Below, piece after piece: positions 10,915 to 43,333 of a stretch of DNA of 64,000 bases. The stretch comes from Escherichia phage vB_EcoM_PTE-Eco05. Each line of letters starts with the position of its first letter. Position 1 is the first letter of the stretch. The position numbers and the translations under genes were made by a program. The stretch lies in the sequence record PQ306573.1; one strand, written 5' to 3'. The notes below the pieces were generated by a model. That model saw nothing but the letters and a program-made list of their open reading frames with translations. It was not told where the DNA came from and did no database searches.

Positions 10915-11472
10915 ATGAAATTTTTAAAATATGTAAGTTGGGTTGTTCTTGTTCCTATAGATTGGATCGCAGCGATTTTAGCAATTATTCTAGCACCATT
11001 TGTAGTTCCATTCCATAGTGAAAAAACCGGTAAACTACCTTATGGCTTTGACTGGATGATGACTTACGATAATCCTATCGATGGTGACCGCGGCCATGTT
11101 GAACGTTGGTCTAAAATACGTAAAATTCCTGTTATAGGTAAATATGCTCAACGCGTAGCTTGGCTATGGCGCAACAAAGCATATAATTTTTCGTATCATG
11201 TTTTAGGTCGCGAAGCTTCATCAGAATGGCACTATAAAGGCAACGCCGAAACTAAATCTGGATCTCCTGATCCGGCACATCATGGATATCTTTTAGTTTG
11301 GAACGAGTCGGCATGGGGATTATTCGCTGCTATACCTTATCTTAAGGTTGGTGGTATTACATTTTATCTGCGTGTTTACTGTGGTTGGAAACTTAAGAGT
11401 CTTTTGAGTCGTCCTATTCCACGCGCAATGCTTTCATTCCATATCAACCCTTTACGATATTACAAAAACTAA
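10915..11472 (+). CDS. membrane protein
   Basis: 185 aa; hydrophobic N-terminus. Confidence 0.55.
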   Translation: MKFLKYVSWVVLVPIDWIAAILAIILAPFVVPFHSEKTGKLPYGFDWMMTYDNPIDGDRGHVERWSKIRKIPVIGKYAQRVAWLWRNKAYNFSYHVLGREASSEWHYKGNAETKSGSPDPAHHGYLLVWNESAWGLFAAIPYLKVGGITFYLRVYCGWKLKSLLSRPIPRAMLSFHINPLRYYKN

Positions 11473-11474
11473 TC

Positions 11475-11507
11475 AAAGCCCCTTCCGAAAGGTTGGGGCT
11501 TTTTTGC
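11475..11507 (+). terminator. rho-independent terminator (GNRA-loop hairpin plus T-run)
   Basis: AAAGCCCCTTCCGAAAGGTTGGGGCTTTTTTG. Confidence 0.55.
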
Positions 11508-11571
11508 ATTTAGCAGTTTACTTCTCCTCAGGTTGTGTTATAGTAGACCTTACTTACTAGAGGAGAACGTT

Positions 11572-11751
11572 ATGTCACGTAAAGAAAAAATTTCTAAGTT
11601 AATGTTTTTGATTGAAGAGTACGCTAACGCTGTATCCGATTGGGAAAATGCTCATGGTTGCGAAGATGGAGACATCGACATTAACAGAGCTATGAAAAAG
11701 ATGGCTGATACGCACACCGAATTACAAATGTATGTTAACGAGATTATGTGA
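11572..11751 (+). CDS. hypothetical protein
   Basis: ATG 11572 with GAGGAG RBS; early-promoter-like GTTTAC at 11516. Confidence 0.45.
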   Translation: MSRKEKISKLMFLIEEYANAVSDWENAHGCEDGDIDINRAMKKMADTHTELQMYVNEIM

Positions 11752-11758
11752 GGATATT

Positions 11759-11965
11759 ATGCTTTACGATTATACTGGAAAATCCGAAGATGGTGTACTT
11801 GAACTTTTACCTGAAAGCGTTGAAGATGATGATACGGTGGTGATGTTTTGTAAAAATGGTCCTGGGGATAAGGGATGGATTTATCTTCGCCAAGAAAATG
11901 ACCTAATTGTTTTGGACCCTAAACAAGTTGAAGAACTTTATCAACATTTAAAACACAATCGGTAG
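11759..11965 (+). CDS. hypothetical protein
   Basis: ATG 11759 after GAGGA; the track's longer ORF starts at 11732. Confidence 0.45.
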   Translation: MLYDYTGKSEDGVLELLPESVEDDDTVVMFCKNGPGDKGWIYLRQENDLIVLDPKQVEELYQHLKHNR

Positions 11966-12244
11966 TTTACATCTTGATAGGACTATGGTATAGTAGTCCT
12001 ACCAAAACAAATGGAGAACAAAATGAAACTTTTGCTTATCGCTTATGTTGTAGTACAATATAATTATCCGATGTTTACTTATAACATGGTAAACGGCATA
12101 GTGAATCTTATTGAAACGAGTATGGTAAAATGACCTGTGAACAAGCTAATAAATTGATGGATATTATTTAATTTTATAGAAATCAGGTTGATGCGTGCCA
12201 GAATGCTTTGGTGAATTTTGTTGAAACTTTAATTGGTGAATAAT

Positions 12245-37332: not shown

Positions 37333-37968
37333 ATGAAAACTACACCAATCACTATCGCTATTGACGCAATCGTAAAACAAGCTTCATCTCTTGCCACTAT
37401 GGCTAAAGTAATTAGTCAAAACCCTGCTCGGTATAATGCTATTCTTGAAACTCTTCGTCGCCCTGGACTGAGTAATTATGAAAGTCGTGTAATTATTACA
37501 GGTGTTGGTAAGAACGCTAATATCGCAACTAAAGCTTCCGAGACTTTTGCTTCACTAGGTATTCCTAGCATGTATTTGAACACTGGGCATTATTCTCATG
37601 GTGACGCAGGATTTATTGCACCTAATGATGTATTAGTTCACATCAGCCGTTCTGGTAAGACTGAAGAAATGATAGGTGTTGCTAAACATCTTCGTATGAT
37701 TCGTCCTCAGGTTAAACAGATTCTGTTACATTGTAACCCTGACATTCCACAAGAATACGAAGCTCTTTTTGATTATACGTTCTGTACTGGTATCGCGGTA
37801 GAAGTTGACGAGAACTCTTTAGCTCCGACAATGTCTACTACATTGTTGTTAGCGCTTATCGATACGTTCGCTATCAACCTTTCGTCTGAACGTGGATTTA
37901 CCTCTAATGATTTCCTTAAGTTCCATCCAGGCGGTGCACTAGGTGCCATGTTACGAGGCGAACAATGA
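37333..37968 (+). CDS. SIS-domain sugar-phosphate isomerase, KdsD/GutQ-like arabinose-5-phosphate isomerase
   Basis: ITGVGKNANIATKASETFASLGIPS...HGDAGFIAPNDVLVHISRSGKTEE...LAPTMSTTLLLALID...HPGGALG matches API SIS motifs; no CBS domains. Confidence 0.8.
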   Translation: MKTTPITIAIDAIVKQASSLATMAKVISQNPARYNAILETLRRPGLSNYESRVIITGVGKNANIATKASETFASLGIPSMYLNTGHYSHGDAGFIAPNDVLVHISRSGKTEEMIGVAKHLRMIRPQVKQILLHCNPDIPQEYEALFDYTFCTGIAVEVDENSLAPTMSTTLLLALIDTFAINLSSERGFTSNDFLKFHPGGALGAMLRGEQ

Positions 37969-38107
37969 AAGCAATATCAATAGGACTTTTACTATTGATG
38001 CTTGTCATGACTATCTACTGGAGCTTAACGGCTCCAGTAATGATTCCAACACTTGTAATTGGATGGATTATGATTGGACTACAAGCAAAGTATGAATGCT
38101 TTAACTA
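37965..38107 (+). CDS. small hydrophobic membrane peptide (47 aa)
   Basis: ATGA overlap with upstream stop; MKAISIGLLLLMLVMTIYW... Confidence 0.35.
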
Positions 38108-38149
38108 GAATAGTGTACAATACTCCTACTTACCAATGAGGACTTCAAC

Positions 38150-39835
38150 ATGAAAAAAGCTGTTATTCTTGGTGCTGGACTGGCAACTCGTTTGTATCCA
38201 ATAACGCATCATATTCCTAAGGTGCTTGTTAACTATAAACAAGACACTATTCTGAGCAATTTGTATACAATTTATTCTGACCTTGGCGCAGATGAAATTA
38301 TTGTAGTAGTTCATTCAAAATTTGCTGAAACTGTTCGAGCTTATTGTGAGCAAGAAGGGTTCAATGTGACTATTCGTACAGTTGATGAAGCGTATGGTTC
38401 TGCTTATGCTCTTGCTAAATTACACAAAGATTTAGACGGCCATAATGTAATTGTTAACTGGTGTGATATTATTCCCGATTTTGGTTCATGGTCTTGGAAT
38501 GTTAACGCAATCTATGTTAAGGGTGATGAATGTCGGTATAATTTCGATGGTGAAAATATCACTAATGTAGGTGAAACAGGCGGTAATGTTGTAGGAATTT
38601 ATCAGTTCAAAGACTGGGAATTCTATATGGGTTCTACCGATGAGGAAATTCATGAATACTGCAAAGGACGTGATTTCGTAGAATTCCTTTACGGCAGCAC
38701 ATTCAATAAATCAGAGCTTATGAATCTAATTGATTTAGGTGATATGCCTAAACTTGAAAAGGCCCATGAAGTTCGTGAACTGAACCGTAGTTTTAATGCA
38801 GTTGAAATTGGCGAAGAAACTGTAACTAAATTCGCATTAACCGAACAGGGTCGAGCTCTTCAGAAAGATGAGATTTCGTGGTATTTGAAAGTGAAATCAG
38901 ATTCAGTTCCTCAGTTAGTTTCTGTTAATGAAAATAACTTTGAAATGGAACGCATTAAAGGTAAGCCGGCATTTGAATATATTAAATCAAAATCAAGTCT
39001 TGCTCGTCCACAAATTATTGATGCAATTTTAGATGCACTGAAATTCAGCACAGACACTTATTTTGTAAGTCCTGAAACTGTTCGTCGTGATTTCACTAAA
39101 GAATTCTATACGAAAGTTATTGATCGTTGTGAAAGCATTCAACCATTGATTGATTCATTTGGTAAAATCACACATGTGAACTACACTAAGATTGGACGTC
39201 TGAAGCCAATGCTGAAACAAGCTTTAGAACACCTTATTCGTTATCATAACCGTTCTCAGGGACAGTACTCTGTTATTCATGGTGACCCGAACTTCAGTAA
39301 TACTATGATTACTGATAACGGCGAAGTCAAGTTTATCGACCCTCGTGGATATTTTGGCGAAACCAAGATTTACGGGCCAAAATTGTATGATGAAGCTAAA
39401 GTGCTTTACGCTGTTTCAGGTTATGATGAATTCAATGCTAATCCGACCTGGGGACAGTTTACTATTGATGAAACAACTTGTAATGTGACTATTAACATCA
39501 ATCCATTAGTTTACAAATATGGAAAGATGAGTTCGTTTAACGAGTATCATCATTTGGCAGTGGCAATTATCTGGATTGCATTAGGTGGTTATTTCAAGAA
39601 TAATCCACTTAAAGCGGTAGCCGCATATTATAAAGGTATGGAACTTCTGACTAAGCAATTACGTAATATGGGCCGTGTACTTCAAGACGGCTCTATTAGT
39701 TATGACGTAGCAGAACCTGTAACGGCTACTCTGATTACAAAAAATCCTGGTAAATGGGTACTAACTGATAAAGAAACTGGTGTTTCCTATCGTCCAATCG
39801 GTGGCGATATCACTCATCAATGGGAACGAATCTAA
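38150..39835 (+). CDS. bifunctional NDP-sugar pyrophosphorylase / sugar kinase fusion
   Basis: N-terminal AVILGAGLATRLYPITHHIPKVLV nucleotidyltransferase motif; C-terminal IHGDPNFSNTMI and FIDPRGYFG resemble APH/choline-kinase-fold motifs. Confidence 0.75.
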   Translation: MKKAVILGAGLATRLYPITHHIPKVLVNYKQDTILSNLYTIYSDLGADEIIVVVHSKFAETVRAYCEQEGFNVTIRTVDEAYGSAYALAKLHKDLDGHNVIVNWCDIIPDFGSWSWNVNAIYVKGDECRYNFDGENITNVGETGGNVVGIYQFKDWEFYMGSTDEEIHEYCKGRDFVEFLYGSTFNKSELMNLIDLGDMPKLEKAHEVRELNRSFNAVEIGEETVTKFALTEQGRALQKDEISWYLKVKSDSVPQLVSVNENNFEMERIKGKPAFEYIKSKSSLARPQIIDAILDALKFSTDTYFVSPETVRRDFTKEFYTKVIDRCESIQPLIDSFGKITHVNYTKIGRLKPMLKQALEHLIRYHNRSQGQYSVIHGDPNFSNTMITDNGEVKFIDPRGYFGETKIYGPKLYDEAKVLYAVSGYDEFNANPTWGQFTIDETTCNVTININPLVYKYGKMSSFNEYHHLAVAIIWIALGGYFKNNPLKAVAAYYKGMELLTKQLRNMGRVLQDGSISYDVAEPVTATLITKNPGKWVLTDKETGVSYRPIGGDITHQWERI

Positions 39836-40221
39836 TGCACCGTGTAGAAAACATGCTTAATCTTTGTTTTGATGTCGATGATTGTATAACAGAGTGGAAT
39901 AACAATCGTGATTACGTGAACTTCAAACCAGACGTCGAAATGGTGTCTGCCATTAATGCTCTGTATGATGCAGGGCATACCATAACGCTTTACACTGCTC
40001 GCGGTATGAAGTCAGTAGGTCCTGGTCGTATAGCAATTGACATTCTCCCAAGTCTGATTCAGAACTTGGCAAACATTGGCTTGAAGTACCATAATTTGCT
40101 AACACATAAACCAGTATATGATTGGATTATCGACGACAAAGCTATGCGTCCTGACGAATTCAAAGCTCTTATGAATAAAGGCGAATTCGAAACATTTAAA
40201 TCGTATAAACCGAATCTATAA
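39835..40221 (+). CDS. HAD-superfamily phosphatase-like protein
   Basis: FDVDDCIT near N-terminus (HAD motif I-like), later TARG and WIIDD. Confidence 0.55.
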   Translation: MHRVENMLNLCFDVDDCITEWNNNRDYVNFKPDVEMVSAINALYDAGHTITLYTARGMKSVGPGRIAIDILPSLIQNLANIGLKYHNLLTHKPVYDWIIDDKAMRPDEFKALMNKGEFETFKSYKPNL

Positions 40222-40269
40222 TAATTTAAGTAAGACCTGCAAAAAAACCATCGCATCAATTAACGCGAG

Positions 40270-41439
40270 ATGCAAAAAATGAATACTTTTAAAATCGGAA
40301 CGAATTTTGATTTAGCTCTTCTTGATAAAATCGTAGAGCTCAATAAAACTTATCCTAATAGCTTGATAAATGAAGTATACGGCTCTACAAGAGAAATGGC
40401 TTTTGTAGCAGCCAGACCTGATTTTAGGCTTCCTGACGTTGACAAAAAGATGTTAGAAGATTACGTTAAACGTTGTAACGAATTAGGTATTTGCTTTAAC
40501 TATACACTCAACACGATAAATCCTGGTTCAAAAAGAGAACTAGTTGAGTGGAAGAAGAAAGCTATTCAGGATTATGTTCAGTATCTTTGGTCAATAGGCG
40601 TATGGCGTATTACTATCGCTAACCCTGTTGTTATGGAAATTGTTCGTGAAGTCAATAAAGACATTGAGATTGAAGTTTCAACAATTCTACATGTCGATGC
40701 TGTAACTCAAATCAAATACTTGCATGACCAGTATAATATCAAAAAGGTCTGCTGTGGAATTCATAAGAACCGTTCAGTTTCTTTCCTGAAGCGTGCAGCA
40801 GAGTTTTGCAATAAGAACAATATAATATTTGAAGTTCTTGTAAATGAGTTCTGTTCTAATGCTGGTAAAGGGTATACAACACATTGTAGCTATCGTGACT
40901 CTTGCTATATTTTCCATAGTACTGATGTTACAGCTGATGATGCTAAATCCTTAAACGGATATCCTATGCAGCACTGTATTAAAGCTCGTGATACAGACCC
41001 ATTTAACTGGTTGAGAACTCGTTTTGTTCGTCCTCAAGATTTGAAACTTTATAATGATATTGGTATCACTCAATTCAAAGTTTCAGGACGTACAGGTAGC
41101 ACAGACTACATTTTGAAAGTTCTTGAAGCATACGCTTCTGAAAAGTTTGAAGGTAATTTGTTAGAACTGTGGAAGCCTTTAGAGACTATTTTCACTCTTG
41201 AAAACGAAACTGAGTTTTCACATACAGTAAATATTGAAACCTCTTTGTTAGATGGCTTTTTAGAAAAAAGGTGGTTCAGACATCCAGATTTCGATTGTGC
41301 TAATGAAATCTGCGGGACGACGTGTACATATTGTGAAAGATATTATAAACGTCAATTATCTAAAAACGGGTTAGCAGAAAACTCTATATCTATTATTGAT
41401 ATAACTAACTCTGATGACGCTTTGAGGTACCCGGAATGA
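40270..41439 (+). CDS. Cys-rich hypothetical protein of the sugar/modification cluster
   Basis: 389 aa; NEFCSNAGKGYTTHCSYRDSCY and C-terminal CANEICGTTCTYCERYY. Confidence 0.55.
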   Translation: MQKMNTFKIGTNFDLALLDKIVELNKTYPNSLINEVYGSTREMAFVAARPDFRLPDVDKKMLEDYVKRCNELGICFNYTLNTINPGSKRELVEWKKKAIQDYVQYLWSIGVWRITIANPVVMEIVREVNKDIEIEVSTILHVDAVTQIKYLHDQYNIKKVCCGIHKNRSVSFLKRAAEFCNKNNIIFEVLVNEFCSNAGKGYTTHCSYRDSCYIFHSTDVTADDAKSLNGYPMQHCIKARDTDPFNWLRTRFVRPQDLKLYNDIGITQFKVSGRTGSTDYILKVLEAYASEKFEGNLLELWKPLETIFTLENETEFSHTVNIETSLLDGFLEKRWFRHPDFDCANEICGTTCTYCERYYKRQLSKNGLAENSISIIDITNSDDALRYPE

Positions 41440-41675
41440 TTTCTAGAAAAACTTTTAACCACCAACTTAATGAAGAGATTTTGACTATGAAACTGAACAC
41501 TAACGAACAAATTCTTAAAAGGGCCCTGATGGGCCTGTTTGAAACTAAAGCGGCTAAAGTGATTAAAGAACCTGTTCAATTGGAATACTACGCTGATGCA
41601 TTTCTTCATAGTGTTCTTGGAAGTATCGGTGCTGAAGCTTTACGTTATATCAACATTGTCAAGAAATTCAAATAA
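41436..41675 (+). CDS. hypothetical protein
   Basis: 79-aa ORF. Confidence 0.45.
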   Translation: MISRKTFNHQLNEEILTMKLNTNEQILKRALMGLFETKAAKVIKEPVQLEYYADAFLHSVLGSIGAEALRYINIVKKFK

Positions 41676-41717: not shown

Positions 41718-42434
41718 ATGGGAAAACATAACACAATGAAATATATCAAAGCCGCAGATTTTCAAGCCGCATTTAAAGCAGTCAATCGTGAAATTTTAGA
41801 AAACCCGGAATTCGTAACTGATTCTCGTATTGGACGTTGTAATGAAATTGGGTCTATGACAGTAGTTGTTGACACTCCATCATCATTCAAAATGACCGAC
41901 CCACGTATTAACCGCATCTCTTATGAATATGCCGAAGACTTCTGGAAGTTTATGATTTCTGGTGGTACCAACGCAGAAGAAGCGTTTAAGGCATATCCTA
42001 ATGTCGCTAAATTTATTTCTAAACCAAAATCAGATGTTTTGCCGGCGAACTTCAACACTTTCTATGGTCCTCGCATTGCGGCCCAATTACCAGCTCTTCT
42101 AAAAGAACTTAAAGAGAAGCCTAACTCTCGAAGAGTTGTGTTCCAAATTCTAGAAAGTTCTGATCAGGCTTTGCTTGATTCAGACGAAACGCTTGAATAT
42201 CCATGTACTGACTCAGTGACTTATTATATCCGTGATGGTAAGCTTTATACCCACTGTCATATGCGTTCTCAGAACTGCGCTGTTGTTATGCAGTTGGATT
42301 TTTATCTCCAAGGAAAATTACTTCATTATATCGCTAACGAATGCGGTGTAGAAGTTGGTGATTATACTCATACCATGGTAAGTGCCCATGTGTTTGAACG
42401 TGATTTTGATTATGTTAAAGGATTCCTTGACTAA
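41718..42434 (+). CDS. thymidylate-synthase-fold pyrimidine hydroxymethylase (divergent dCMP hydroxymethylase-like)
   Basis: NSRRVVFQIL and YPCTDSVTYYIRDGKL...MRSQNCAVVMQLDFY align with TS/CH core motifs incl. catalytic Cys; same position as T4 gene 42. Confidence 0.65.
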   Translation: MGKHNTMKYIKAADFQAAFKAVNREILENPEFVTDSRIGRCNEIGSMTVVVDTPSSFKMTDPRINRISYEYAEDFWKFMISGGTNAEEAFKAYPNVAKFISKPKSDVLPANFNTFYGPRIAAQLPALLKELKEKPNSRRVVFQILESSDQALLDSDETLEYPCTDSVTYYIRDGKLYTHCHMRSQNCAVVMQLDFYLQGKLLHYIANECGVEVGDYTHTMVSAHVFERDFDYVKGFLD

Positions 42435-43333
42435 TGGCTATTTTCCGCGTACCAATCTTGAGTATGCGGTCTTATGAAACTGGACAGTATGCTATCCTTA
42501 AGGATGGCAACTTCCAACTTCATTTGCACCGTGCTAATCCGGGTGATGTGATTACATATCCACGTAATGCATCTGATATTAAAGAATGCGAACGTCTTTT
42601 TCCAGAATTTAAGTTTGTTCCATTATGGTATAAAGATAACGCGTATAACACTCGTAAATATTTCTGGTCTGAAAATGAATTTGTGGTTGATTCATTAATT
42701 GCTTATTATGATTGTGATTTTCTAATCACAGATATCACTGGATATGACGGCGCTTTTGATGTGGAATTCAATTTCAATATCACTGCAGACCCTAATAAAC
42801 CACGTTTTTATATTGACGAATTCTTAAAAACTGATATGTTGTCGGTTAATCGTTCACTTCAAACTACTGTGTTGAATGAACGTCAAAAAGAAGTGCTGGT
42901 TAACGCAGGTGCAGATGGTAATAAGATTATCGTAACGCAGAAAGTTATACGTCCTTCCATCATGCAGCGTCTTGTAGGTGATTTGGCTCCTATTTATCTA
43001 GATGGTATTTTTCATCCATTTCGAATTAGTGACCCGTGCTATCGTTTTGAACAAGTGGTTGAATGTGCAATTCAATTAGGCCAACCGCTTTATATAACCG
43101 ATCCAAATAATAGCTTCGACAGAAATAAGTATCCTGAAGAAGCGCTGATTCGAATTTTTAAACCAACTAAAACAGAGTACTATCAAATTCTTAAAGGGCG
43201 TCCTAAAATTCAATATTTCGAAAATCCTGAAGAAGTATTCCATCCAGGTCTTGGTGAGTTCATCTACTTTAATGCTTTAATTTCTTCGCCGTATAATATA
43301 CCTAAATATGAAGATGTCGTAATCGAGGAATAA
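42434..43333 (+). CDS. hypothetical protein (candidate DNA sugar transferase by context only)
   Basis: 299-aa ORF between hydroxymethylase and kinase; no motif recognised. Confidence 0.5.
   Translation: MAIFRVPILSMRSYETGQYAILKDGNFQLHLHRANPGDVITYPRNASDIKECERLFPEFKFVPLWYKDNAYNTRKYFWSENEFVVDSLIAYYDCDFLITDITGYDGAFDVEFNFNITADPNKPRFYIDEFLKTDMLSVNRSLQTTVLNERQKEVLVNAGADGNKIIVTQKVIRPSIMQRLVGDLAPIYLDGIFHPFRISDPCYRFEQVVECAIQLGQPLYITDPNNSFDRNKYPEEALIRIFKPTKTEYYQILKGRPKIQYFENPEEVFHPGLGEFIYFNALISSPYNIPKYEDVVIEE

Follow-up and report, generated by a model that had tools for sequence, protein, structure and literature searches.

In the DNA of phage RB69 the modified base is arabosylated 5-hydroxycytosine rather than hydroxymethylcytosine (Lee et al., NAR 2026, PMC13326640). 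Its ThyA homologue, gp48, was shown experimentally to make 5-hydroxy-dCMP, and 18O2 labelling, a bound flavin and cited work on HY126 identify molecular oxygen as the oxygen source (PMC13326640). According to the same study, an isomerase, a bifunctional kinase/nucleotidyltransferase and a phosphatase supply UDP-arabinofuranose, and the GT-B protein gp46:47 is put forward as the transferase that acts first (PMC13326640). RB69p050, another gene of this cluster, appears there only in Table 1, as a 'Sugar or heterocycle reductase' with fold matches to 5d88 and no discussion, and the tRNA and rRNA hydroxylation pathways are treated in the Discussion without connection to gp50 (PMC13326640). In a 2021 survey the entry for RB69p050 reads 'Homologs among peptidases'; neither the 2018 RB69 paper nor the Thanatos paper takes up the U32 gene, and the HY126 record annotates the U32 protein as hypothetical. 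Our full-text literature search, of incomplete coverage, found no paper tying U32 to phages together with chorismate mutase (CM) or DNA hydroxylation.

The U32 family includes O2-independent Fe-S hydroxylases, as the initial annotation of this locus correctly noted. E. coli RlhA (YdcP), a U32 protein like the phage gene product, is the factor required for 5-hydroxycytidine at C2501 of 23S rRNA; the 5-hydroxycytosine made by the phage cluster is the product of the same C5 hydroxylation. Prephenate is a genetically established requirement of RlhA and TrhP and the oxygen donor for UbiU/V, and direct hydroxylase activity has been reconstituted in vitro for no U32 protein yet. The TrhP/TrhO and UbiU-UbiV/UbiI,H,F systems of E. 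coli follow the logic that we propose for the phage, in which an O2-using enzyme and a prephenate-using U32 enzyme yield one product and the pathway operates over the whole oxygen range. Whereas the E. coli genes are scattered and serve tRNA or ubiquinone, both phage candidates belong to a single cluster, two genes from each other, and would act on DNA precursors. From these relatives and from the genes linked to U32, we propose, with a probability of roughly 0.6, that the phage U32 protein is an O2-independent, prephenate-dependent source of 5-hydroxycytosine.

A U32-family gene in the modification cluster

The DNA analysed is a 64,000-nucleotide stretch of Escherichia phage vB_EcoM_PTE-Eco05 (hereafter the window), which contains a T4-like phage replication module (gp46, gp45, gp44/62, regA, gp43, then uvsX and gp41) with a modification gene cluster inserted between DNA polymerase and uvsX. 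The 6.6-kb cluster shares 99.2% identity with Shigella phage JK45 and 98-99% with about 150 RB69-like (Mosigvirus-type) phages. Its features are as follows.

37333..40221, + strand: UDP-arabinose supply genes (Pfam SIS and NTP_transferase matches; JK45 annotation; roles per PMC13326640)
37333-37968, + strand: arabinose-5-phosphate isomerase, UDP-arabinose supply
38150-39835, + strand: bifunctional kinase/nucleotidyltransferase, AfhE-like, UDP-arabinose supply
39820-40221, + strand: HAD phosphatase, AfhF-like, UDP-arabinose supply
40270..41439, + strand: U32-family protein, RB69 gp50 homologue, 389 aa from the first ATG or 386 aa from the ATG at 40279
41436..41675, + strand: 79-aa ORF, RB69 gp49 homologue, phrog_8601 (PHROG match)
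41718..42434, + strand: ThyA-family 5-hydroxy-dCMP synthase, O2- and flavin-dependent (98.7% identity to RB69 gp48)
42434..43333, + strand: GT-B glycosyltransferase, RB69 gp46:47 homologue, proposed first arabinosyltransferase (proposal in PMC13326640)
43335..43883, + strand: thymidylate-kinase-like nucleotide kinase, RB69 gp45 homologue, 182 aa (Table 1 of PMC13326640)

The 389-aa ORF at 40270-41439 (+) is present as initially described. Its true start is likely the second ATG, at 40279, because the JK45 protein is annotated from there (386 aa) and the family alignments begin at that methionine. Promoter-like sites such as the one at 40195-40222, 5' of the gene, are no commoner than in shuffled sequence. 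The initial annotation had placed the ORF between sugar-activation genes and a hydroxymethylase. The position next to the sugar-activation genes holds, but the downstream neighbour is a ThyA homologue that carries the RSQN...LDF signature and is 98.7% identical to RB69 gp48, which makes it a 5-hydroxy-dCMP synthase by the published experiment on gp48.

The same annotation called the protein an orphan whose resemblance to U32 was faint and whose family assignment was weak. The family was right; the rest gives way to the search results. Pfam Peptidase_U32 (PF01136) matches residues 97-289 at 42.2 bits against a gathering cut-off of 22.4 (E 7.4e-11), and PHROG 5757, 'peptidase', matches end to end (E 3e-267). 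The protein occurs in 221 phage records (tblastn), and an exhaustive HMMER search returned 1,185 representatives of 50%-identity clusters at E<=1e-3, with 720 at <=1e-10 and 114 at <=1e-30. The only NCBIfam U32 model to match was the UbiU equivalog NF047963, at a sub-threshold 18.4 bits against a curated cut-off of 440; the phage protein is therefore not UbiU and forms a subfamily of its own. The gene is under strong purifying selection, with a dN/dS of 0.011 versus HY126 and a dN of only 0.09-0.17 where dS is saturated.

Fold comparison of the predicted model gave the U32 TIM barrel, as in Mk0906 of Methanopyrus kandleri (PDB 5d88); a sequence search of the PDB with the U32 protein returned nothing, and 5d88 was recovered by fold comparison only. 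Mk0906 is 14% identical and 247 residues long, and hence cannot cover the region of the phage protein's C-terminal Cys cluster. A confident match to an unrelated fold, which had been set as the finding that would overturn the initial proposal, was looked for, and the U32 TIM barrel was what emerged. The suggestion that the ORF might encode the sugar transferase finds no support, given this barrel and the separate GT-B gene at 42434-43333; a glycosyltransferase identity with GT-A or GT-B fold was accordingly rejected.

As annotated in databases, the protein would be a collagenase-like U32 peptidase that processes a phage or host protein. Database names favour this function, and Kimura et al. 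were unable to exclude a peptidase role formally even for RlhA. We nevertheless consider it highly improbable: U32 'peptidases' are without any established catalytic mechanism, the conserved residues are predicted metal ligands, and the neighbourhood is one of nucleotide and sugar metabolism in every lineage examined.

The ATG of the 79-aa ORF overlaps the U32 stop codon (ATGA), so that the two are translationally coupled. The small protein is cysteine-free, is predicted by modelling to form a two-helix hairpin, and shows conservation in certain T4-like genera (45% identity with phiR1-RT g049), while in HY126 the ORF is split by a frameshift. A Pfam search with it gave no match at E<=10. The idea that it is a diverged chorismate mutase was rejected on negative results with BLASTP, Pfam (E<=10) and a custom CM HMM (E 2.2), and is also ruled out by the two-helix model and by its coexistence with a separate, real CM in phiR1-RT and other phages.

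Conserved cysteines and candidate metal sites

Three segments of the U32 protein are mapped as follows.

40831..40977, + strand: U32 motif region with the proposed Fe-S ligands E188, C195, C206, C212 and C236 (translation, hhalign)
41074..41091, + strand: FKVSGR, counterpart of the canonical U32 'KIEGR' (aligned to KIEGR of TrhP, RlhA and UbiU)
41296..41334, + strand: C-terminal Cys cluster C343-x4-C348-x3-C352-x-Y-C355, outside the canonical U32 core (translation)

Both Cys clusters reported initially were confirmed, CSNAGKGYTTHCSYRDSC at aa 195-212 and CANEICGTTCTYC at aa 343-355. Nine cysteines (C161, C195, C206, C212, C236, C343, C348, C352 and C355) are invariant among 121 homologues down to ~48% identity, a conservation far above chance. 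In 125 more remote representatives C206 and C236 are retained in 100% and C195 in 99%, and position 212 is Cys in 62% or His in 37%. K270 and R274 of FKVSGR are 100% conserved in the remote representatives.

By hhalign, E188 corresponds to E161, C206 to C169, C212 to C176 and C236 to the second Cys of the CX3/4C pair. The U32 motif E...C-x6-C, whose cysteines are essential in RlhA and UbiU, is thus present, but with x5 spacing instead of x6. Relative to the canonical [4Fe-4S] motif CX6CX15CX3/4C, C206, C212 and C236 have counterparts and the third Cys position is missing. C195 sits in a 10-residue insertion after E188 and, judged from the alignment, could be the fourth ligand, giving C-x10-C-x5-C-x23-C. 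The four C-terminal cysteines, invariant in the 121 homologues, conserved at 92-94% in the remote representatives and modelled with confidence of 94-95, form a candidate second metal or Fe-S site. The last three cysteines of this cluster (C-x4-C-G-T-T-C-T-Y-C) have the CX3CX(aromatic)C spacing typical of radical-SAM proteins. A radical-SAM reading of the C-terminal CX3CX2C was rejected on finding no PF04055 match and no other radical-SAM feature; separate radical-SAM genes lie near U32 in loci L010, L015/L016 and L050.

Comparison with RlhA sharpens these points. The two proteins share the hydroxylation of cytosine at C5 (proposed for the phage protein) and the dependence on prephenate and Fe-S, which is genetic for RlhA and suggested for the phage protein by gene linkage; the essential RlhA residues C169 and C176 align with phage C206 and C212. 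Direct HMM scores between the two are very weak. RlhA has 653 aa, a DUF3656 region, essential C-terminal C580 and C611 and a ribosomal RNA substrate, whereas the phage protein has 386-389 aa, the 10-residue insertion with C195, its own CX4CX3CX2C tail and a place in a DNA-modification cluster. It also differs from UbiU/UbiV, a heterodimer with one cluster in each subunit, in offering two candidate sites on a single chain. The early guess of a metal-dependent enzyme in the modification pathway is strengthened by these data, its activity still being a prediction.

Prephenate-supply genes and distant relatives

The gene neighbours of U32 in other phages provide a clue to its cofactor. In Erwinia phage Virsaitis27, an annotated chorismate mutase gene overlaps the U32 stop codon (Pfam CM_2 44.6 bits, cut-off 27), and the U32-CM arrangement recurs in Serratia X20, Yersinia phiR1-RT, Proteus Pm5461 and Shewanella Thanatos-2, the last of which has a rearranged cluster where U32 and CM nonetheless remain neighbours. 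Across the T4-like loci of a viral contig collection, CM adjoins U32 in 13/15, the two exceptions being the Mosigvirus type, to which the window belongs, and Klebsiella phage Marfa. A six-frame search of the whole window found no CM. Conversely, tblastn with one CM found 51 phage records, and all matches listed come from U32-positive genera. The phage CMs all retain residues R11, R28, K39, S84 and Q88 of EcCM, which we take to be its catalytic residues.

The linkage extends to 39 distant loci, whose U32 proteins share 40-56% identity and some of which are duplicated or short. A CM domain stands beside U32 in 11 of the 39 (custom HMM), DAHP-synthase-family genes in 7/39, and one or both in 13/39. 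Two of the distant DAHP-synthase genes, checked in detail, are DAHP synthase-CM fusions (CM_2 65-86 bits), and in L056 a free CM overlaps the U32 end (53.7 bits). The possibility that the DAHP_synth_1 neighbours are KDO8P synthases acting together with the arabinose-5-phosphate isomerase was rejected, as NCBIfam favours DAHP synthase: the synthase halves of the fusions reach 125-163 bits with DAHP-synthase models and 30-53 with those for KDO8P synthase, and the free-standing gene of L011 scores 237 against DAHP synthase and 63 against KDO8P synthase. DAHP synthase genes, alone or fused to CM, adjoin U32 at L048 7302-8357, L050 8332-9387, L059 ~11082-12200 and L011 9145-9891. Because the arrangements vary (upstream fusion, downstream fusion, free downstream gene), the association appears to have arisen repeatedly and not as one inherited accident. 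The shikimate genes beside U32 in phages seem to serve cofactor supply, not amino-acid synthesis, and the gene linkage points to a prephenate-dependent phage U32 protein.

As regards DISPLACEMENT of the O2-dependent enzyme, the ThyA-type synthase lies 1.1-1.6 kb downstream of U32 in 15/15 T4-like loci and, by tblastn and a 5hodCMP-synthase HMM, within 10 kb on either side in 0/39 distant loci, several of them short. One marginal ThyA-HMM match, in L036, was rejected: this protein retains D169 and N177 and is an ordinary dUMP-type thymidylate synthase. Other cluster genes are found in the distant loci: 27/39 contain a homologue of the window's GT299 transferase (42434-43333), and many also have AfhE-like, isomerase or 182-aa kinase homologues. 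A dCMP deaminase is encoded immediately upstream in L010, L012 and L013. The kinase-GT-U32 triad is conserved in L014, L015, L041, L042, L047, L049 and L063, which suggests that the 182-aa kinase may phosphorylate the hydroxylated nucleotide. Many of the distant contigs are long, the largest reaching 466 kb, and carry genes for DnaE-type polymerases.

In L014 (9098-10000) and L042, the gene immediately after U32 encodes a TET-associated glycosyltransferase (TAGT; 33.9 bits, cut-off 27.5), so that U32 occupies the place normally held by the O2-dependent TET enzyme. At both loci dUTPase/DCD and UDP-galactopyranose mutase genes are close by, and no TET gene was found within 8-10 kb. Phage TET/JBP dioxygenase-TAGT cassettes likewise set a hydroxylating enzyme beside a DNA glycosyltransferase that uses the new hydroxyl. 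TET enzymes, however, require O2, Fe(II) and 2-oxoglutarate for their oxidation of 5-methylcytosine in DNA, whereas U32 is unrelated and would need no O2. A third conserved U32 context is seen at L075 3044-7137 (a Phocaeicola faecalis isolate) and L073 4929-9086 (a BRC1 MAG), in the order GP88-family protein, guanylate-kinase/SAM-methyltransferase fusion, 267-282-aa protein, then U32. This gene order resembles the B. subtilis yrrMNO operon, which comprises an O-methyltransferase and two U32 proteins, and by that analogy might yield a 5-methoxy-pyrimidine nucleotide.

These contexts bear on two further explanations. The U32 protein might instead tailor the sugar or the finished base (arabinose, UDP-arabinose, arabinosyl-5hoC), for example as a 'sugar or heterocycle reductase'. 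It always lies inside sugar-activation and glycosyltransferase clusters, Lee et al. so label it in Table 1 (PMC13326640), and the U32-less phages DLP3 and Maestro make the arabinosylated base, as expected were U32 an optional extra. But the label draws only on the 5d88 fold match, with no argument in the text (PMC13326640), and U32 proteins are not known to act as reductases. Moreover, U32 is kept across different sugar genes (SIS and AfhE; TAGT and UDP-galactopyranose mutase), which ties it to the base and not to one sugar, and sugar tailoring leaves unexplained both the linkage to chorismate mutase and DAHP synthase and the lack of another hydroxylase in the distant clusters. We judge it unlikely.

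Less likely still is an RNA hydroxylase acting on tRNA (ho5U34) or rRNA (ho5C2501) of host or phage during infection, its location among DNA-modification genes being incidental. RNAs are the only nucleic-acid substrates established for U32 proteins, and the prephenate linkage would fit equally. Yet U32 stands beside a 5hodCMP-synthase gene in 15/15 sampled T4-like loci, and unrelated phages keep with it the same glycosyltransferase family and nucleotide kinases (27/39) and dCMP deaminase. Furthermore, the extra domains of RlhA are missing (389 aa versus 653), and E. coli hosts already possess RlhA and TrhP.

The distribution of U32 is narrower than that of the synthase, with 221 phage records against 373 for the ThyA-type enzyme. 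The ten most frequent organism names among the U32 matches are all Enterobacterales, and Pectobacterium, Erwinia and Shewanella are also among the matches listed; Acinetobacter (57 synthase records) and Rhizobium (20) are absent among the U32 matches listed, where up to two records of each would be possible. Direct inspection found U32 missing from both Acinetobacter phage Maestro and Pseudomonas phage PspYZU05, where the ThyA homologue adjoins a phosphatase gene. Dhakavirus JS10, a phage of E. coli, has the ThyA-type enzyme without U32, and name counts suggest ~40 such Escherichia records. At all three loci (L017, JS10; L018, PspYZU05; L019, Maestro) the ThyA homologue comes directly after the phosphatase gene or a following kinase. 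This U32-free junction argues that the U32 block was inserted or deleted at one fixed junction of a syntenic cluster, where U32, with or without CM and p79, is an optional cassette. A Seg-type homing endonuclease gene is found just upstream of U32 in several genera (L002, L003, L004).

Among 100,044 species genomes scanned, only 8 loci contain this U32 subfamily: Erysipelotrichales, Bacillota, Lachnospiraceae, Romboutsia (two), Tannerella, the isolate Phocaeicola faecalis and a BRC1 MAG, host assignment being partly via MAG binning, which proves no host. The first seven, all but the BRC1 MAG, are strict anaerobes. The Romboutsia loci read U32-CM-GT-AfhE.

A proposed oxygen-free route to 5-hydroxycytosine

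From the observed family membership, fold, conserved ligands and gene linkage we infer the chemistry, substrate, cofactors and oxygen independence of the phage U32 protein; for Fe-S binding and work without O2, the conserved cysteines and the host distribution are the pertinent observations. It would work like RlhA, TrhP and UbiU/UbiV, taking a hydroxyl group from prephenate. The prephenate would originate from the phage CM, in some phages together with DAHP synthase, and in the window's phage from host PheA/TyrA. At the U32 active site, prephenate would give its hydroxyl to C5 of a cytosine nucleotide, and electrons would leave through a [4Fe-4S] cluster on C195/C206/C212/C236 and the second site, on the four cysteines of the C-terminal cluster. 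A dedicated kinase would then phosphorylate the product, the polymerase incorporate it and glycosyltransferases decorate it. A 5-hydroxypyrimidine deoxynucleotide is the likely product, most probably 5-hydroxy-dCMP and less probably 5-hydroxycytosine formed in DNA. We prefer a mononucleotide substrate because nucleotide kinases and dCMP deaminase are recurrent partners whichever of the three contexts is considered; the pairing with TAGT, and the fact that RlhA and TrhP act on RNA polymers, leave room for a reaction on DNA itself. That this would be the first U32/prephenate hydroxylase on a DNA precursor, a single-chain, two-cluster enzyme converting dCMP to 5-hydroxy-dCMP without oxygen, is a more tentative proposal, to which we give slightly less than even odds.

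In RB69-like and other T4-like phages of facultative anaerobes, U32 would provide a second, oxygen-free route, parallel to the O2/flavin-dependent ThyA-type 5hodCMP synthase encoded two genes downstream. The ThyA-type enzymes (RB69 gp48, DLP3 gp80 and the HY126 enzyme) have the product and pathway that we propose for U32, but differ in their thymidylate-synthase fold, flavin and use of O2, and in having an experimentally proven role where that of U32 is a prediction. In the distant relatives with no ThyA-type enzyme nearby, U32 would be the only hydroxylase. Since JS10-type phages have the synthase without U32, U32 is not needed for modification as such, and since they infect E. coli, it is not obviously needed for life with this host. 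Counting against the oxygen-free route are the lack of a chorismate mutase in the Mosigvirus type and Marfa, the departure of the Fe-S motif from the canonical CX6CX15CX3/4C, and the label 'sugar or heterocycle reductase' given to RB69 gp50 (PMC13326640).

The 5-hydroxycytosine pathway published so far depends on molecular oxygen, although many of these phages grow on gut bacteria. An oxygen-free route, if true, would account for DNA modification by such phages in anoxic habitats, the gut among them. It would serve as a reserve in gut coliphages and as the only route in phages of strict anaerobes, some of which bring in DAHP synthase and chorismate mutase to supply it. The proposed function is absent from the literature that we searched, whose coverage is incomplete. 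Shikimate-pathway genes would also be carried by phages for a purpose distinct from supplying amino acids. That U32 proteins hydroxylate with the help of prephenate is accepted on genetic grounds, and the known substrates, ribosomes, tRNAs and greasy quinone precursors, hamper reconstitution; a small, soluble mononucleotide substrate would, if the proposal is true, furnish the in vitro assay hitherto missing for the whole U32 hydroxylase family. Finally, the distant relatives indicate that anaerobe-linked phages harbour many DNA hypermodification clusters still to be explored, clusters that matter for restriction evasion, phage therapy and the sequencing of modified DNA.
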